Sequence record: PP047753
Source of the DNA: Escherichia phage KEP3
Direction: 5' to 3' (one strand)
Length of the DNA: 64,000 nt
This document shows, piece by piece, positions 44,582 to 48,353 of this stretch; the stretch's first letter is position 1; each line of letters starts with the position of its first letter. The notes beneath the pieces are model-generated. The model was not told the DNA's origin, made no database searches, and saw only the letters and a list, made by a program, of their open reading frames with translations. The translations under genes and the position numbers were made by a program.

Positions 44582-47131
44582 TTAAGCAGTTCTTACCCAA
44601 GCCATTAACTTATAGAACTGGTTAGTAACACTAAATGCTAAACCAGAACCAGTACCACCTGTGTTACCACTAACTGTGTGGCTGTGAGCACCAATACCAA
44701 CAGTGTGGCTGTGGTTACCTGTTGTATTCGTTACACCAGACCAGTTTCTTGATGCGTTGAAGTTGACAGGGATACCATTAGTAAAGTTGTTACCAGTATA
44801 CCCTTTAGAACCTGCCTGACTACCGAGGTAGAATGCACCACTTGCTGTGTAGAAGCTACTAGCGTCACTTCTGAAGTAACCAAATGAACCAGTAATCTCC
44901 ATAGTACCTCTGTTGTGGTTGTGGTTACCAGTTGTGCTAGAAGTCTTAGTACCATAGTCAAATGATGAAGTAGTAGCAGAGAAGCTGTGCGTGTGTGAAG
45001 GTAAGTTACCAACAGACAGCGTTACAGAGTCTGAACCACCAGTTGTAGCAACATCTGAACCGTTTGCTGCTGCAATTCTAATAGTTCTACCAACACCATT
45101 ATTCAGGTACGTCCAAGTTAACCCAGGAAGTGCTGTGTTTGGGTTGACATTACTGTTAAACCACGTCACAATACCTACTGGATAGATTTTATTCAGGTCT
45201 GTAGAGTCACTAATTGCTTCTGCAATCTTCTGGTCAGTTTCTGCTTTAGTGTATGCACCAATATCTGAAGGGGTTGGTTTTTGCAAACTTGTGTAGTATT
45301 TTGCAATTGTACCCTTCACAATACCTTGTGGAGCATCATCAAATGTCTGTGGGACTTCAAACAACTGTACACTTGCATTACTAGAAGACTGAACCCTTGT
45401 CGTTGTGCTGTTTTGATACGTACCAGCAAGATAGTAAATATCATAGGTGTCTCCAGAAGTATTCACATAACCAATATCCCTGACAATGGTGTTCTCTGAT
45501 GTTCTCCAAGCAACAACATTTAAGCCCTTTGGATTGTTATTTGAAGTTCGCAGAACAATTTCACATTTACCTGCTTGGTTTGGTGTATTAATATTAAAAC
45601 CTGACCCACCAAATACCTCAATAACAGCAGTGGATGCTGATTGTGGCATCACAACAGTGGCAATTTTAGCCCACTTATCAGTGTTTCCCACATTGAAGCT
45701 AGTGCTTCTGATTCTTAGGTATCTACTATCACTAGCACTTTGCGTAAAGTATCTAGCATCTAAGTTAGAGAAATCTGAAGGTTGAACTTGTCCAGCAATA
45801 GTCAATGTTTTGTTAATGTATGATGTTGTATTCCCGAGAACCAATTGGGTTCCAGAATAACTGTTATTTAGGGTAACATCATGCGTATCAGCACCACCAA
45901 CACCAATCCACCATCTTGATACATTAGTAGTGTCCACACCACGAATATATAATGGTCTATTCTGAGTAGAGTTTTTAACAATCAGACCTTCATTATCCGT
46001 AACAACTGTCTGTACACCATTAAAAGTATTCCTTGCATTAGTTCTTGCAATTGTACTTAATGTTGCTGCCGGAATATATCTAGAGTCAATGTTAGCCCAA
46101 TCTGAAGGTTGAACTTGTCCAGTGATTCTGACATTTTTATTTGCTGATACTCCAGCAGCATCTAAGACCAAAGAGGTGTTAGTGGTATAGTTGTAGATAG
46201 TTACACCAGCACCTGAACTACCTTTACCAAGATACCATAAGTTTCCACCTTCATAATCTTTTGCAAGTAGATACAGGGATTCGTTTGCTGATGCACATTG
46301 CAGTGTGATAGCAGCAGCATTTGAGATAACACTCATAGTCCTAAATGTGTTAGCACCTGTAAAGGTGTTATTACCAGCTAACTGTGCAAATCTCTGATTA
46401 GCAACTGTCTGAGTGAAGTATCTAGCATCTAAGTTAGAGAAATCTGAAGGTTGAACTTGACCAGTGATTGCTAAAGACTTATTAACAGAGATATTGCTTG
46501 CAATAGTCAAAGCTGAGTTGTATTTGTTATTGTACAGTTTTACTTCATCAGAGCCATTACTACCAATACCAACCCACCATCTAGCTGAACCATCTAAGTT
46601 CACACCCTCAATATATTGCGCATTATTTGCATTCTGGTTTCTAAGACGAAGTAAGTTAGCATCACCTTGAATGTTCTGAGTTCCAGAGAATGTGTTTGTG
46701 ACAGCAAGCCTTGCATATCTTGCATCATTCTCTTCATTAGTTCTCATCCCAAGCTCATTAGGGCTTGGTTTATTCAAAGTGTGATAAACAGTTGCCGACC
46801 TTGAAGCATCTGCAATAGTGAGTTTAAGACCATTTGCATTAATTTTAAAAGTCTTTAAAACATCCCCAATAGTAACCTCAGAAGAGCCTGTTGGGTCAAA
46901 TACTGCCTTACCACCGTAAAGTAACTTGACAATACCTAAATCCCCAACCATAGTACTCCCAGCAATCTGAACAAACCTTTCTAGTTTGAAGGAAGCTAAG
47001 AAGTCTTGATAGGTCATTCTACGGTCTTCGTCACCCAACATTTCAGGTCTTTTCTTAACTCTGATGTGCAATAGGTCTTCTGAACGAATTGTGTCGATTG
47101 AGTTTAACTGACTCAATTTGTAATCTGCCAT
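44582..47131 (-). CDS. tail fiber protein (849 aa) with internal repeats and HxH-rich C-terminal tip
   Basis: Triplicated GQVQPSDFSNLDARYF motif; C-terminus HSHTVGIGAHSHTV...AFSV...RTA shared with the neighbouring fiber. Confidence 0.7.
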   Translation of the reverse strand: MADYKLSQLNSIDTIRSEDLLHIRVKKRPEMLGDEDRRMTYQDFLASFKLERFVQIAGSTMVGDLGIVKLLYGGKAVFDPTGSSEVTIGDVLKTFKINANGLKLTIADASRSATVYHTLNKPSPNELGMRTNEENDARYARLAVTNTFSGTQNIQGDANLLRLRNQNANNAQYIEGVNLDGSARWWVGIGSNGSDEVKLYNNKYNSALTIASNISVNKSLAITGQVQPSDFSNLDARYFTQTVANQRFAQLAGNNTFTGANTFRTMSVISNAAAITLQCASANESLYLLAKDYEGGNLWYLGKGSSGAGVTIYNYTTNTSLVLDAAGVSANKNVRITGQVQPSDWANIDSRYIPAATLSTIARTNARNTFNGVQTVVTDNEGLIVKNSTQNRPLYIRGVDTTNVSRWWIGVGGADTHDVTLNNSYSGTQLVLGNTTSYINKTLTIAGQVQPSDFSNLDARYFTQSASDSRYLRIRSTSFNVGNTDKWAKIATVVMPQSASTAVIEVFGGSGFNINTPNQAGKCEIVLRTSNNNPKGLNVVAWRTSENTIVRDIGYVNTSGDTYDIYYLAGTYQNSTTTRVQSSSNASVQLFEVPQTFDDAPQGIVKGTIAKYYTSLQKPTPSDIGAYTKAETDQKIAEAISDSTDLNKIYPVGIVTWFNSNVNPNTALPGLTWTYLNNGVGRTIRIAAANGSDVATTGGSDSVTLSVGNLPSHTHSFSATTSSFDYGTKTSSTTGNHNHNRGTMEITGSFGYFRSDASSFYTASGAFYLGSQAGSKGYTGNNFTNGIPVNFNASRNWSGVTNTTGNHSHTVGIGAHSHTVSGNTGGTGSGLAFSVTNQFYKLMAWVRTA

Positions 47132-47150
47132 TATGAATTTTCCTCTTAAA

Positions 47151-47168
47151 AGGGGCTATAAAGCCCCT
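47151..47168 (-). terminator. terminator/attenuator hairpin between the two tail fiber genes
   Basis: AGGGGCT-ataa-AGCCCCT followed by TTTT then AAGAGG RBS (minus orientation). Confidence 0.4.
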
Positions 47169-47177
47169 GTAAAGAAA

Positions 47178-48353
47178 TTAAGCTGTTCTCTGCCACACAT
47201 ACACTACAAAAGATGGCTGCTCAACACTGAAAGCTTGACCACCACCAACAGAACCAGATGTCCCTGAGTGTGTATGCTCAGAGCTAGAAACAGTAACAGT
47301 GCCTGTATGACTGTGCGAACCAATATTAACAGTGTGGCTGTGAGCACCAATTGCGACAGTATGGCTATGAGCACCAGATGATGCAGTTGTACCTGAGAAG
47401 CTATGGGTGTGAGCACCAGCTAAATCAGTATACATAGCATTACCAACACCAGCATCAGCAGATGCAGTAATAGCGTTTGTGCCACCCCTATCATTACCCC
47501 TCATAGGGACTCTATGGTTGTGGTTACCAGCATTACTTGTTGTGCCACTAAACGTGTGAGTGTGAGAACCAGCACTATTAGTCGTTTTTGTACCGTAATC
47601 AAAAGTTGATGTACTTTTTGAACCATAATCAAAACTAGAGATAGATACACTTGCAGAGTGTGTATGACCACCACCTGTTAGATAGATAGAGTGAGTATGC
47701 GCTGGTAAATTATTATTTGTTAATGCTACAGTCTGAGAACCAAACGTTGAACCAACAGGTCTAGAATATGTATCATAACCAACTAGTGCTCTACCTTTAG
47801 AAACTAACTCCCAAGTACCTCCACAAAGCAAGTAAGTGGATGGGTTATCAGAGTTAACAGATAGATGAATAGTACCCACTGGATATGATGCTTGGATAGC
47901 TTTGTATAAATTATTAACTGCTTTCGCGGTAGCATATTTATCAGCATCTTCATTGTACAGATTGGATGTTGTCCAGTTCTGAACATTACTTAAACCAACC
48001 TGTGCTTTCGTTGTGTTATGTGGGTTACTTTTGTCGTCAATATGTTGCTGAATTAAGTTATTCACTTCCTCTGACGACATAATTTGTAGATTTGCTCTTG
48101 CCTCAGCAACATTTACAATATCTGACAAGTTATTAGCTGCAACTAATTGAAGAGAGTTAATAACATTATCAAGACCTACTTGCGATTTAGTTACACCATG
48201 AGGGTTATTCCTCAAAGATGCGTGAGGTGCTAACAACTGCTCAAGCGTACATCTTTTATCCTCAACACCTTGCTTAAGATGGAAGATATCACTTAAATCA
48301 ACTGGTAAGGCCGCTTGTGGCAAGGCACTAATTTGAATTTCACCTACTGCCAT
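47178..48353 (-). CDS. tail fiber protein (391 aa) with HxH-rich C-terminal tip
   Basis: Repeats KSQVGLDNV/KAQVGLSNV; C-terminal HTHS/HSHT repeats and ...QAFSV...WQRTA. Confidence 0.7.
   Translation of the reverse strand: MAVGEIQISALPQAALPVDLSDIFHLKQGVEDKRCTLEQLLAPHASLRNNPHGVTKSQVGLDNVINSLQLVAANNLSDIVNVAEARANLQIMSSEEVNNLIQQHIDDKSNPHNTTKAQVGLSNVQNWTTSNLYNEDADKYATAKAVNNLYKAIQASYPVGTIHLSVNSDNPSTYLLCGGTWELVSKGRALVGYDTYSRPVGSTFGSQTVALTNNNLPAHTHSIYLTGGGHTHSASVSISSFDYGSKSTSTFDYGTKTTNSAGSHTHTFSGTTSNAGNHNHRVPMRGNDRGGTNAITASADAGVGNAMYTDLAGAHTHSFSGTTASSGAHSHTVAIGAHSHTVNIGSHSHTGTVTVSSSEHTHSGTSGSVGGGQAFSVEQPSFVVYVWQRTA

Follow-up and report, generated by a model that had tools for sequence, protein, structure and literature searches.

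The genome of Escherichia phage KEP3 (PP047753) carries two adjacent tail fibre genes whose products both end in segments rich in HxH motifs, and this raises the question of whether one receptor-binding module sits on two different shafts and, if so, how it came to be there. We have analysed a stretch of 64 000 nucleotides from this genome (the window), which directly yielded the identity of the genes, their domain homologies, the motif counts, maps of variability and the mosaicism. The window shares 96–98% nucleotide identity with vB_EcoM_H12 and wV8, and the source phage is a wV8-type (Felix O1-like) Felixounavirus of E. coli. Very probably the two genes are a wV8-like Felixounavirus side-fibre pair with tips of the T4 gp37 type and an extra shaft in the longer protein. 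The two open reading frames of the original prediction (849 and 391 amino acids) were found exactly where it had placed them, and the locus is made up as follows.

48356..48658, minus strand: 100-aa protein upstream of the short fibre gene (PHROG 4141; synteny with Bas63 gp23–gp27)
47178..48353, minus strand: short tail fibre gene (STF, 391 aa; open reading frame; PHROG 2097 tail fibre, E=3e-137); orthologues are wV8 gene 82, Felix O1 gp76, Sf14 gp52 and Bas63 gp26
47151..47168, minus strand: hairpin AGGGGCU-UUAU-AGCCCCU between the STF and LTF genes (sequence and fold)
44582..47131, minus strand: long tail fibre gene (LTF, 849 aa; open reading frame; PHROG 4277 tail fibre, 1344 bits); orthologues are wV8 gene 83, Felix O1 gp77, Sf14 gp53 and Bas63 gp27

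The genes run in the order wedge 2 (489 aa), wedge 1 (284 aa), 100-aa platform, STF and LTF, followed by two small membrane proteins and a convergent thymidylate synthase gene; from wedge 2 to thymidylate synthase this order is identical in wV8, JLBYU28 and Bas63. Fibre gene order and sizes are likewise the same in the Felixounavirus pairs of wV8, Sf14, Felix O1 and Bas63. Amino acid identity is 99% to wV8 and 75% to Bas63 gp26 for STF, and 93.4% to wV8 and 58% to Bas63 gp27 for LTF. T4 gp37 requires the chaperones gp38 and gp57A; no gene for either was recognised adjoining the KEP3 fibre genes. The 100-aa protein is the orthologue of Bas63 gp25, a T4 gp9-like platform on which the long fibre rests (PMC12609058). 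The hairpin between the fibre genes is followed on its 3' side by UUU and then by the LTF ribosome-binding site, and its 61-nt context folds at -16.8 kcal/mol (z=-2.35). The matching site in wV8 is annotated as a Rho-independent terminator; a terminator consensus scan missed the KEP3 hairpin because its T run has only 4 T. It is possibly an attenuating terminator.

The short fibre divides into five parts.

47904..48353, minus strand: STF residues 1–150, N-terminal baseplate-binding domain and helix-and-turn linkers (81–94% conserved among homologues)
47700..47903, minus strand: STF residues 151–218, collar, T4 gp10 C-terminal-like (Pfam PF21939 Gp10_C)
47508..47699, minus strand: STF residues 219–282, descending needle arm with four HxH (219, 230, 264, 278), aligning to the 2XGF needle
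47412..47507, minus strand: STF residues 283–314, hypervariable head insert, predicted receptor-contact tip
47181..47411, minus strand: STF residues 315–391, ascending needle arm with five HxH (315, 329, 338, 347, 360; 2XGF alignment)

The long fibre has nine.

46712..47131, minus strand: LTF residues 1–140, baseplate-binding domain, first degenerate shaft domain and first linker (KPSPNELGMRTNEENDARY)
46412..46711, minus strand: LTF residues 141–240, repeat unit 1 (PF20744), ending in linker GQVQPSDFSNLDARYF (Pfam; unit alignment)
46070..46411, minus strand: LTF residues 241–354, repeat unit 2 (PF20744), ending in GQVQPSDWANIDSRYI (Pfam; unit alignment)
45743..46069, minus strand: LTF residues 355–463, repeat unit 3 (PF20744), ending in a second exact GQVQPSDFSNLDARYF
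45296..45742, minus strand: LTF residues 464–612, fifth shaft domain (beta-rich, ~140 aa)
44996..45295, minus strand: LTF residues 613–712, last linker (QKPTPSDIGAYTKAETDQKIAEA) and collar
44909..44995, minus strand: LTF residues 713–741, descending needle arm with two HxH (713, 737; 2XGF match)
44714..44908, minus strand: LTF residues 742–806, head insert of ~65 aa
44585..44713, minus strand: LTF residues 807–849, ascending needle arm with two HxH (807, 816), 89–95% conserved

The two proteins resemble each other at their beginnings. The baseplate-binding motif is EDKRCT in STF (residues 31–36) and EDRRMT in LTF (residues 35–40), and an alignment of the first 60 residues of STF with the N-terminus of LTF scores z=4.2; in Sf14 the two fibres carry EDRKCT and EDRKMT as the matching motif pair (PMC11821841). 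Behind this domain STF has two copies of the linker NPHxxTKxQVGLxNV, and its profile positions 70–148 match PDB 9ZD7 ('short tail fiber gp92') with E=1.8e-13.

At the other end, both fibres match the crystal structure of the T4 gp37 tip (PDB 2XGF; Bartual et al. 2010). STF residues 146–362 do so with E=2.5e-26 (E=4.3e-23 as a profile), and LTF with E=5.6e-4 as a single sequence and 2.7e-15 as a family profile. The STF collar scores 65.8 bits against Gp10_C (cut-off 27), matches T4 gp10 structures 2FKK/5HX2 (E=1e-5 as a single sequence, 3e-10 as a profile) and is modelled by AF2 with pLDDT 87–92; the LTF collar scores 26.6 bits against Gp10_C, 0.4 bits below the cut-off of 27. Every histidine of the tip region lies within an HxH pair in both fibres. 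The nine HxH of STF were reached in none of 20000 composition-preserving shuffles (mean 1.63), and at least the four of LTF in 6 of 20000 (mean 0.37). The motifs FDYGTK and HSHxVGIGAHxHTV are common to T4 gp37 and the KEP3 tips; T4 gp37 has seven HxH, its head is unrelated to both KEP3 heads, and its tip belongs to the distal half (gp37, 1026 aa) of a fibre made of four proteins, whereas those of KEP3 are carried by single-protein fibres.

Could the likeness of the two tips be purely compositional, a matter of Gly/Ser/Thr/His-rich low complexity without a shared fold? Those four residues are abundant in the tips, and the 2XGF matches carry HMMER bias terms of 31–38. However, composition-adjusted BLASTP still aligns the tips with E=5e-17, Smith–Waterman comparison of the whole tips against residue shuffles gives z=17, and the collar segment alone, which is free of histidine, gives z=8.5. 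Furthermore, T4 gp10 C-terminal domain models are matched by both collars, and collar, HxH arm, insert, HxH arm and C-terminal strand are collinear in STF, LTF and 2XGF. Composition alone is thus rejected by the shuffle tests, and we regard it as an extremely improbable source of the similarity. The 2XGF matches, the Gp10_C collars and the Bas63 cryo-EM structure (PMC12609058) all identify the HxH-rich segment as a T4-type fibre tip, as the original prediction had proposed, and uphold its view that one tip module stands on two different shafts.

The same prediction described the two C-termini as near-identical and offered recent domain exchange as one explanation. Such an exchange, or a gene conversion, between the two fibre genes of this genome would have put the tip of one fibre on the shaft of the other. 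The strings on which it drew do occur (HSHTVGIGAHSHTV in LTF, HSHTVAIGAHSHTV in STF, AFSV, and WVRTA/WQRTA). The ~16 residues HSHTV(G/A)IGAHSHTV and the C-terminal AFSV...W.RTA are almost equal in both fibres, and the 3' ends of the two genes match at the DNA level, over ~60 nt at 75% identity. But 'near-identical' is an overstatement: the match of the DNA is limited to those ~60 nt, nothing in the tips beyond the ~16 residues is nearly identical, and the pairwise alignment gives 30% identity and 21% gaps over 270 aa. The HxH counts differ (4 against 9), and the head inserts, ~32 aa in STF and ~65 aa in LTF, are unrelated in sequence; in each protein no other part varies as much. Among 120 homologues per fibre, no tip is more than 42% identical to one of the other family. 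The short common stretch is also kept in T4 gp37 (HSHSVGIGAHTHTV), which points to structural constraint rather than recent copying. Finally, an E. coli prophage fibre resembles the needle and head of STF more closely than LTF does: STF residues 242–353 are 57% identical over 115 aa to the C-terminus of prophage side fibres such as P0218. Recent exchange is therefore largely refuted, and we consider it very improbable. The two tips would instead be old paralogues, or independent acquisitions from one widely exchanged module family. Based on the 57% identity, unrelated groups of phages have the HxH needle as a module in common; the N-terminal two thirds of the prophage side fibres are unrelated to STF, and their Pfam domains PF07484 (Collar), PF03335 (Phage_fiber) and PF21446 were not detected in the KEP3 fibres.

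In both fibres the two HxH arms enclose the hypervariable head. STF residues 281–300 show 15% identity among 48 close homologues, compared with 81–94% elsewhere, and the head stretch is 20–28% identical to that of Bas63; the C-terminal strand (...GQAFSVEQPSFVVYVWQRTA) goes back to the collar, and its last 11 residues are 89% conserved. In LTF, residues 613–712 are 96–100% conserved and form a single allele among 118 sequences, whereas the head region (residues 726–800) is 64–77% conserved; the head insert is 24–44% identical to Bas63, and the C-terminal strand of LTF ends in ...GLAFSVTNQFYKLMAWVRTA. The STF head and the LTF tip were modelled by AF2, as monomers, with pLDDT below 50, and a Foldseek search with the model of STF gave no match below E=1e-3. 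KEP3 and its relatives have in common the N-terminal baseplate-binding motif, three PF20744 units, and collar, needle and head on both fibres. Compared with Bas63, KEP3 has nine HxH instead of seven in STF, four instead of six in LTF, and an LTF head about twice as long.

These observations suggest how the fibres may be built. Each would presumably be a homotrimer present in six copies, the trimeric state, the attachment sites and the retracted position along the sheath being adopted from cryo-EM of the relatives. Both begin with a related baseplate-binding domain and end in a gp37-type receptor-binding tip, in which the chain runs from the collar down the needle as beta strands with HxH, through a small head, and up again with HxH to the collar. 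In the trimer each HxH would bring six histidines together in a site on the axis of the fibre. Such sites contain Fe(II) in T4 gp37, so STF would hold nine metal sites and LTF four, and the ions would rigidify the needle and keep it in register. The receptor, which for the genus is LPS (PMC8594841), would be contacted by the hypervariable head and perhaps by neighbouring loops.

STF might be, rather than a side fibre, a short fibre of the T4 gp12 type, folded below the baseplate and deployed after LTF binds for irreversible attachment, with no primary receptor of its own. It is the shorter of the two, its gene neighbours those of the baseplate wedge, and its collar and HxH C-terminus are features that T4 gp12, in general terms, has too; the short fibres in the BASEL paper are drawn by analogy with T4. 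In Sf14 and Bas63, however, the short fibre measures 430 A, is bound to wedge 2A and is retracted along the sheath as the long fibre is, with its head at the tenth sheath ring, and PDB sequence searches with STF returned gp10 and gp37 but no gp12 chain. A gp12-like role is unlikely, and a pair of side fibres is the reading that we prefer. Both fibres are visible in the virions of Sf14 and Bas63, so neither lacks association with the virion.

What distinguishes LTF from STF is an inserted shaft. It comprises five domains of beta structure, of which the N-terminal one is degenerate, three are PF20744 units and one is a larger module; between them stand conserved helix-and-turn linkers with the pattern (K/Q)P(S/T)PS(D/E)...D.RY. 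PF20744 matches LTF with E=2.9e-77 in three stretches (the best at residues 159–247), and the three ~110-aa units (approximately residues 125–240, 240–354 and 354–463) are 34–42% identical pairwise, with BLASTP E values from 1e-14 to 1e-25; their linkers are 70–84% identical at the DNA level across 76 nt. The triplication predicted originally is thus real as to the units, but GQVQPSDFSNLDARYF occurs exactly only twice (residues 224 and 447), and the third linker copy, at residue 338, reads GQVQPSDWANIDSRYI. Unit 1 is modelled with pLDDT 82–88, and LTF residues 84–141 align to residues 586–638 (E=9.5e-5). The profile of unit 2 matches the T7 gp17 pyramid domain (4A0U, 4A0T, 7BOZ residues 369–442; E ~1e-6). 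Foldseek matched the shaft to T7 gp17 and T4 gp34 with probability 0.95–1.0, and the TM-scores are low because the query was a long trimer modelled as a monomer. The unit is related to the T7 gp17 pyramid (4A0T/4A0U) and the T4 gp34 rod repeats (4UXE/4UXG/5NXH); LTF differs in having three such units in series with conserved GQVQPSD...RY linkers and in being without a T7-type tip domain after them.

Residues 1–140 of LTF belong to a single allele, with 90% identity across 118 sequences. Compared with the wV8 sequence, nucleotides 46101–46400 are 55–75% identical and those downstream 98–100%; by this comparison of sequences, repeat unit 2, whose KEP3 allele differs from that of wV8, is a cassette replaced relative to wV8. 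The fifth domain, all beta with pLDDT ~75–88, has no significant Pfam or PDB sequence match; in PHROG it matches several further families of fibres. At this place Bas63 has instead a PF12604 (gp37_C) domain (E=1e-13), smaller than the KEP3 module and 8–28% identical to it. Five exchangeable cassettes, with conserved linkers between them, make up the LTF mosaic.

The fibre arrangement of close relatives was already in print. The C-termini of Felix O1 gp76 and gp77 were both described as T4 gp37-like, with gp77 in the virion, in the 2010 genome paper (PMC3185647), and the 2025 cryo-EM studies modelled both fibres of Sf14 (391 and 792 aa; PMC11821841) and found a collar, HxH needle and head on each Bas63 fibre and five beta-helix repeat domains in its LTF (PMC12609058). 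The shared tip is therefore a correct but ordinary observation, and the five-cassette mosaicism of LTF is what the present analysis adds to published knowledge. Dual receptor specificity of the two fibres is a plausible hypothesis. Host-range mutations in a Felixounavirus LTF fall at residues 497 and 534, in the fifth domain of the shaft and not in the head (PMC6669636), and thus the fibre head may not be the only determinant of specificity.

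Two adjoining reading frames encode the fibres, and both were found at the positions given in the original prediction:

47178–48353, minus strand: short tail fibre (STF), 391 amino acids (aa)
44582–47131, minus strand: long tail fibre (LTF), 849 aa, adjoining the STF gene

The DNA around both genes is 96–98% identical to that of Felixounavirus genomes (vB_EcoM_H12, wV8 and O157 typing phages). On the minus strand, the order from upstream to downstream is a 489-aa wedge protein, a 284-aa wedge protein, a 100-aa protein, the 391-aa fibre and the 849-aa fibre, after which come two small membrane proteins and then the convergent thymidylate synthase/dihydrofolate reductase (td/frd) operon; the gene order in wV8, JLBYU28 and Bas63 is the same. 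In the cryo-EM study of Bas63 (PMC12609058), the counterparts are wedge 2 (gp23), wedge 1 (gp24), a T4 gp9-like LTF platform (gp25, corresponding to the 100-aa protein), the STF (gp26) and the LTF (gp27). The STF is 99% identical to that of wV8 and 75% identical to that of Bas63, and the corresponding values for the LTF are 93% and 58%. Over the conserved parts, identity to Bas63 is 84–100% in the baseplate-binding domain and 88–100% in the collar, and LTF residues 1–140 and 613–725 each form a single allele at 90% identity among 118 sequences. By position and identity, the two genes are the STF/LTF pair of Felixounavirus, and can be named with confidence.

The two ORFs that follow the LTF gene on the minus strand encode 65 aa (44305–44502, directly after the LTF) and 123 aa (43937–44308). 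Both have a hydrophobic N-terminal segment, followed in the 123-aa protein by a coiled-coil-like region, and they match PHROGs 402 and 4038, both of unknown function. Their names vary among relatives, including 'putative holin' and an implausible 'L-fuculose phosphate aldolase', and the Felix O1 paper (PMC3185647) counts gp79 among its holin candidates. A palindromic hairpin, AAGGCTCC...GGAGCCTT, at 43908–43931, with T runs on both strands, sits between the convergent thymidylate synthase gene (plus strand) and the 123-aa gene; it looks like a candidate bidirectional terminator, and the wV8 record annotates a terminator at the equivalent place. ARAGORN found zero tRNA genes in the whole 64-kb window (1–64000), although Felix O1-type genomes have about 22 (PMC3185647), and the tRNA cluster must be located beyond this window. 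The structural module of wV8 has a tRNA-Cys immediately past its terminase end.

Both fibres end, as had been predicted, in a T4-type tip, composed of a collar, a needle of HxH motifs, a head and a returning HxH arm. The STF matches the crystal structure of the T4 gp37 tip (PDB 2XGF) at E=2.5e-26 as a single sequence and at 4.3e-23 as a profile, and the LTF matches it at E=5.6e-4 as a single sequence and at 2.7e-15 as a family profile. The STF has nine HxH motifs (residues 219, 230, 264 and 278, then 315, 329, 338, 347 and 360), arranged four plus five around residues 283–314, and the LTF has four (residues 713 and 737, then 807 and 816), arranged two plus two around residues 742–806. All histidines in the tip regions of both fibres belong to HxH pairs. 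Shuffled STF sequences contained 1.63 such motifs on average and reached the observed count in none of 20000 cases; for the LTF the mean was 0.37, and the observed count was reached in six of 20000. The motifs quoted in the original prediction were likewise found in both proteins. The Pfam collar domain PF21939 (Gp10_C, cut-off 27 bits) scores 65.8 bits in the STF and, marginally under the cut-off, 26.6 bits in the LTF, and T4 gp10 chains in the PDB match the STF collar at E values from 1e-5 to 3e-10.

The order of elements (collar, HxH arm, variable insert, HxH arm and conserved C-terminal strand) is collinear with 2XGF, and from this we infer a tip topology in which the end of the chain lies back at the collar. 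According to Bartual et al. (2010), as summarized in PMC12609058, the chain of 2XGF descends the needle, makes the head and comes back, and HxH pairs of three chains hold axial Fe. By analogy we infer nine axial metal sites in the STF and four in the LTF, the AF2 models available being of monomers only, with tips of low confidence (pLDDT <50). For Bas63, a trimeric six-stranded needle whose axial metal ions are each held by six His is reported, at the level of domains, from cryo-EM with AlphaFold fitting (PMC12609058). A Foldseek search with the STF monomer model gave no match under E=1e-3, and its top matches were the T4 gp10 C-terminal domain (probability ~0.9) and long beta-hairpin pore toxins, an artefact of using a single chain of an intertwined trimer. 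PDB searches at E values of 0.01 to 0.1 or below returned gp10 and gp37 chains and no gp12 chains; judged by these matches, the STF would have no similarity to T4 gp12 beyond the generic collar.

In T4, tips of the gp37 type have dedicated chaperones, gp38 and gp57A. The 65-aa and 123-aa ORFs that follow the LTF match only the PHROGs of unknown function, and the wV8, JLBYU28 and Bas63 records carry no chaperone annotation near the fibre genes. For Sf14, too, no homologues of Mu-type chaperones are reported (PMC11821841).

The two C-termini had also been described as near-identical, but their identity is only 30% over 270 residues, with 21% gaps. Close matching is limited to a 16-residue stretch, HSHTV(G/A)IGAHSHTV, which is kept in T4 gp37 too, and to a few residues at the very end. 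That the similarity consists of low complexity only was rejected: composition-adjusted BLASTP aligns the two regions at E=5e-17, the tip-versus-tip alignment stands at z=17 against shuffles, and the collar segment, which contains no histidine, still gives z=8.5 when the two collars are aligned alone, so that low complexity does not account for it. Recent exchange of the tip between STF and LTF, which the original prediction had proposed as one source of the shared module, did not hold either. Among 120 homologues of each fibre, the STF tip is at most 42% identical to any LTF-family tip, and the LTF tip at most 38% identical to any STF-family tip. Furthermore, STF residues 242–353 (needle and head; 47295–47630) share 57% identity with the C-terminal region of P0218, a 561-aa E. 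coli (pro)phage tail fibre with both a Collar and a Phage_fiber domain. This protein is nearer to the STF needle and head than is the LTF of the same genome. Thus, each tip is a member in its own right of a module family that is widely shared, and neither is a recent copy of the other.

The fibres share a second end, absent from the original prediction. An N-terminal motif, D-L/I-x-H-...-EDKRCT in the STF (residues 1–38; 48239–48353) and ending in EDRRMT in the LTF (residues 1–40; 47012–47131), is weak but real (z=4.2 against shuffles). On sequence grounds this region is the baseplate-binding domain, as noted for Sf14 (PMC11821841), and here as in Sf14 a Cys in the STF stands against a Met in the LTF. 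Beyond it, a helix-and-turn region of the STF (residues ~70–148; 47910–48146) matches PDB 9ZD7, 'short tail fiber gp92', at E=1.8e-13 as a profile.

The original prediction of a triplicated repeat of about 100 aa in the LTF holds in that three units of about 110 aa are present (residues ~125–240, 240–354 and 354–463), but the exact string GQVQPSDFSNLDARYF occurs only twice, and the third copy reads GQVQPSDWANIDSRYI. Because a BLASTP self-comparison of the whole LTF gave the identity hit only, the protein was cut into units for comparison, and these proved to be 34–42% identical pairwise, with E values of 1e-14 to 1e-25. They correspond to three tandem stretches of PF20744 (gp37_trimer; 255 bits, E=2.9e-77, gathering cut-off 21.7 bits). 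The LTF family profile matches the pyramid domain of T7 gp17 at E ~1e-6. In the AF2 monomer model of the LTF, the tip and N-terminus have pLDDT <50 and the shaft domains alone are usable, the PF20744 units having pLDDT 80–90. Foldseek matched this model to T7 gp17 (E=8.6e-5, probability 1.0) and to the T4 gp34 rod (E=1.7e-4, probability 0.97), with probabilities of 0.95–1.0 for the two proteins, but overall TM-scores of only 0.08–0.31. LTF residues 84–141 and 586–638 also resemble each other (E=9.5e-5), which indicates a shaft of five beta domains with conserved linkers between them. The LTF of Bas63 likewise has five shaft repeat domains (PMC12609058).

The fifth shaft domain (residues 464–612; 45296–45742) is beta-rich and about 140 aa long, and is modelled by AF2 with pLDDT ~75–88. 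It gave nothing significant in Pfam and PDB sequence searches, and its best matches, an unrelated Ig domain (E=0.23) and WceF (E=1.1), were rejected as insignificant. The tailspike-like WceF (6TGF) is also the top Foldseek match of the whole LTF model (E=5.5e-7), a match to the model as a whole, so that any link to the fifth domain would be tentative. This domain differs from that of Bas63, in which a PF12604 domain occupies the fifth shaft position; the two are unrelated, with 8–28% identity.

Variation is concentrated in particular parts of the fibres. In 48 close homologues of the STF, head residues 281–300 are 15% identical to the query and the N-terminal 200 residues 81–94% identical. In 117 homologues of the LTF, the baseplate-binding domain and collar are 96–100% conserved, and units 2 and 3, the fifth domain and the head fall to 61–77%. 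The number of HxH motifs also varies among relatives, the STF having mostly nine (range 6–11) and the LTF four or six. Bas63, with seven in the STF and six in the LTF, as in its paper (PMC12609058), differs in both from the nine and four found here, and by sequence the LTF of the present phage is a short-needle, large-head variant.

Compared with wV8, nucleotide identity is 98–100% over 44400–46100, falls to 55–75% over 46101–46400, which is exactly unit 2 (LTF residues ~244–344), and is 91–95% 5' of this patch. The unit 2 replacement is a clean cassette with conserved GQVQPSD linkers at both borders, and of the 56 amino acids that differ from the wV8 LTF, 44 fall in residues 251–350. Among 118 LTF sequences, the five variable segments have 11–20 alleles each (>20% divergent), and every pair of segments includes allele pairs that occur in all four combinations (four-gamete violations). 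Identity switches, plotted as a histogram over the length of the LTF, cluster at the linkers, but this was set aside as evidence of recombination, since conserved linkers alone would give the same clustering; the evidence used in its place is the allele reassortment and the wV8 patch. At the level of sequence, these show clear cassette mosaicism in the LTF family.

The gap that separates the LTF start codon from the STF stop codon holds a G+C-rich hairpin, AGGGGCU-UUAU-AGCCCCU (47151–47168, minus strand), followed by UUU and then by the LTF Shine–Dalgarno sequence. The wV8 record annotates a Rho-independent terminator at the equivalent site; a consensus terminator scan did not call the hairpin. 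It could reduce LTF expression relative to that of the STF. LTF occupancy on Bas63 particles is partial (PMC12609058).

Cryo-EM of Sf14 and Bas63 (PMC11821841, PMC12609058) places six trimers of each fibre on the particle, attached by related N-terminal domains, the STF on wedge 2A and the LTF on the gp9-like platform, and has both kinds retracted along the sheath before infection. Both fibres are in the Sf14 reconstruction, and gp52 (the STF) is marked there as detected by MS (PMC11821841); both are also present in the Bas63 map (PMC12609058). In the Felix O1 proteome, gp77 is present and gp76 was detected at 9% coverage (PMC3185647). By analogy with these relatives, for which virion fibres have been published, both proteins of the present phage, known here from their genes, would be virion components.

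By homology to T4 gp37, each fibre would extend a metal-stiffened needle whose head bears the residues of specificity. The receptor class of the genus is LPS (PMC8594841), and since the heads of the STF and LTF are unrelated, two specificities of the pair are likely. A co-evolution study of a related phage (PMC6669636) found host-range mutations in the LTF at positions 497 and 534, both of which fall within the fifth shaft domain, and so the head may not be the sole determinant. A tentative reading, which we consider rather doubtful as a whole, is that the LTF consists of five cassettes (the three PF20744 units, the fifth module and the head), each exchangeable independently of the others and joined at conserved helix-and-turn linkers that serve as recombination joints, and that the shaft cassettes bind O-antigen/LPS laterally as host-recognition surfaces and are not mere spacers. 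Such an arrangement would account for the free reassortment of 11–20 alleles per cassette, for the swap of unit 2 only relative to wV8, and for the mutations at residues 497 and 534. Host recognition by the shaft is one of three possibilities raised by the Bas63 authors (PMC12609058), so that only the cassette evidence is new.

The resemblance of both C-termini, gp76 and gp77, to T4 gp37 was reported in the Felix O1 genome paper of 2010 (PMC3185647). Virion fibres of 391 and 792 aa are given in the 2025 Sf14 paper (PMC11821841), and the shared tip of collar, HxH needle and head, with variability of tips and shaft, in the 2025 Bas63 paper (PMC12609058). The arrangement found here, a shared tip of the gp37 type together with a repeated shaft domain, is thus correct but already known, and what the present sequence adds is modest: the HxH counts of this lineage, another version of the fifth shaft domain, and explicit evidence of shaft-cassette exchange. 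For annotation, the gain is that the genes are named as short and long tail fibres, and this opens no new question. The likely determinants of specificity are STF residues 283–314 and LTF residues 742–806, and possibly LTF residues 251–337 and 464–612, a map of use when Felix O1-like phages that target O157 are engineered for host range.
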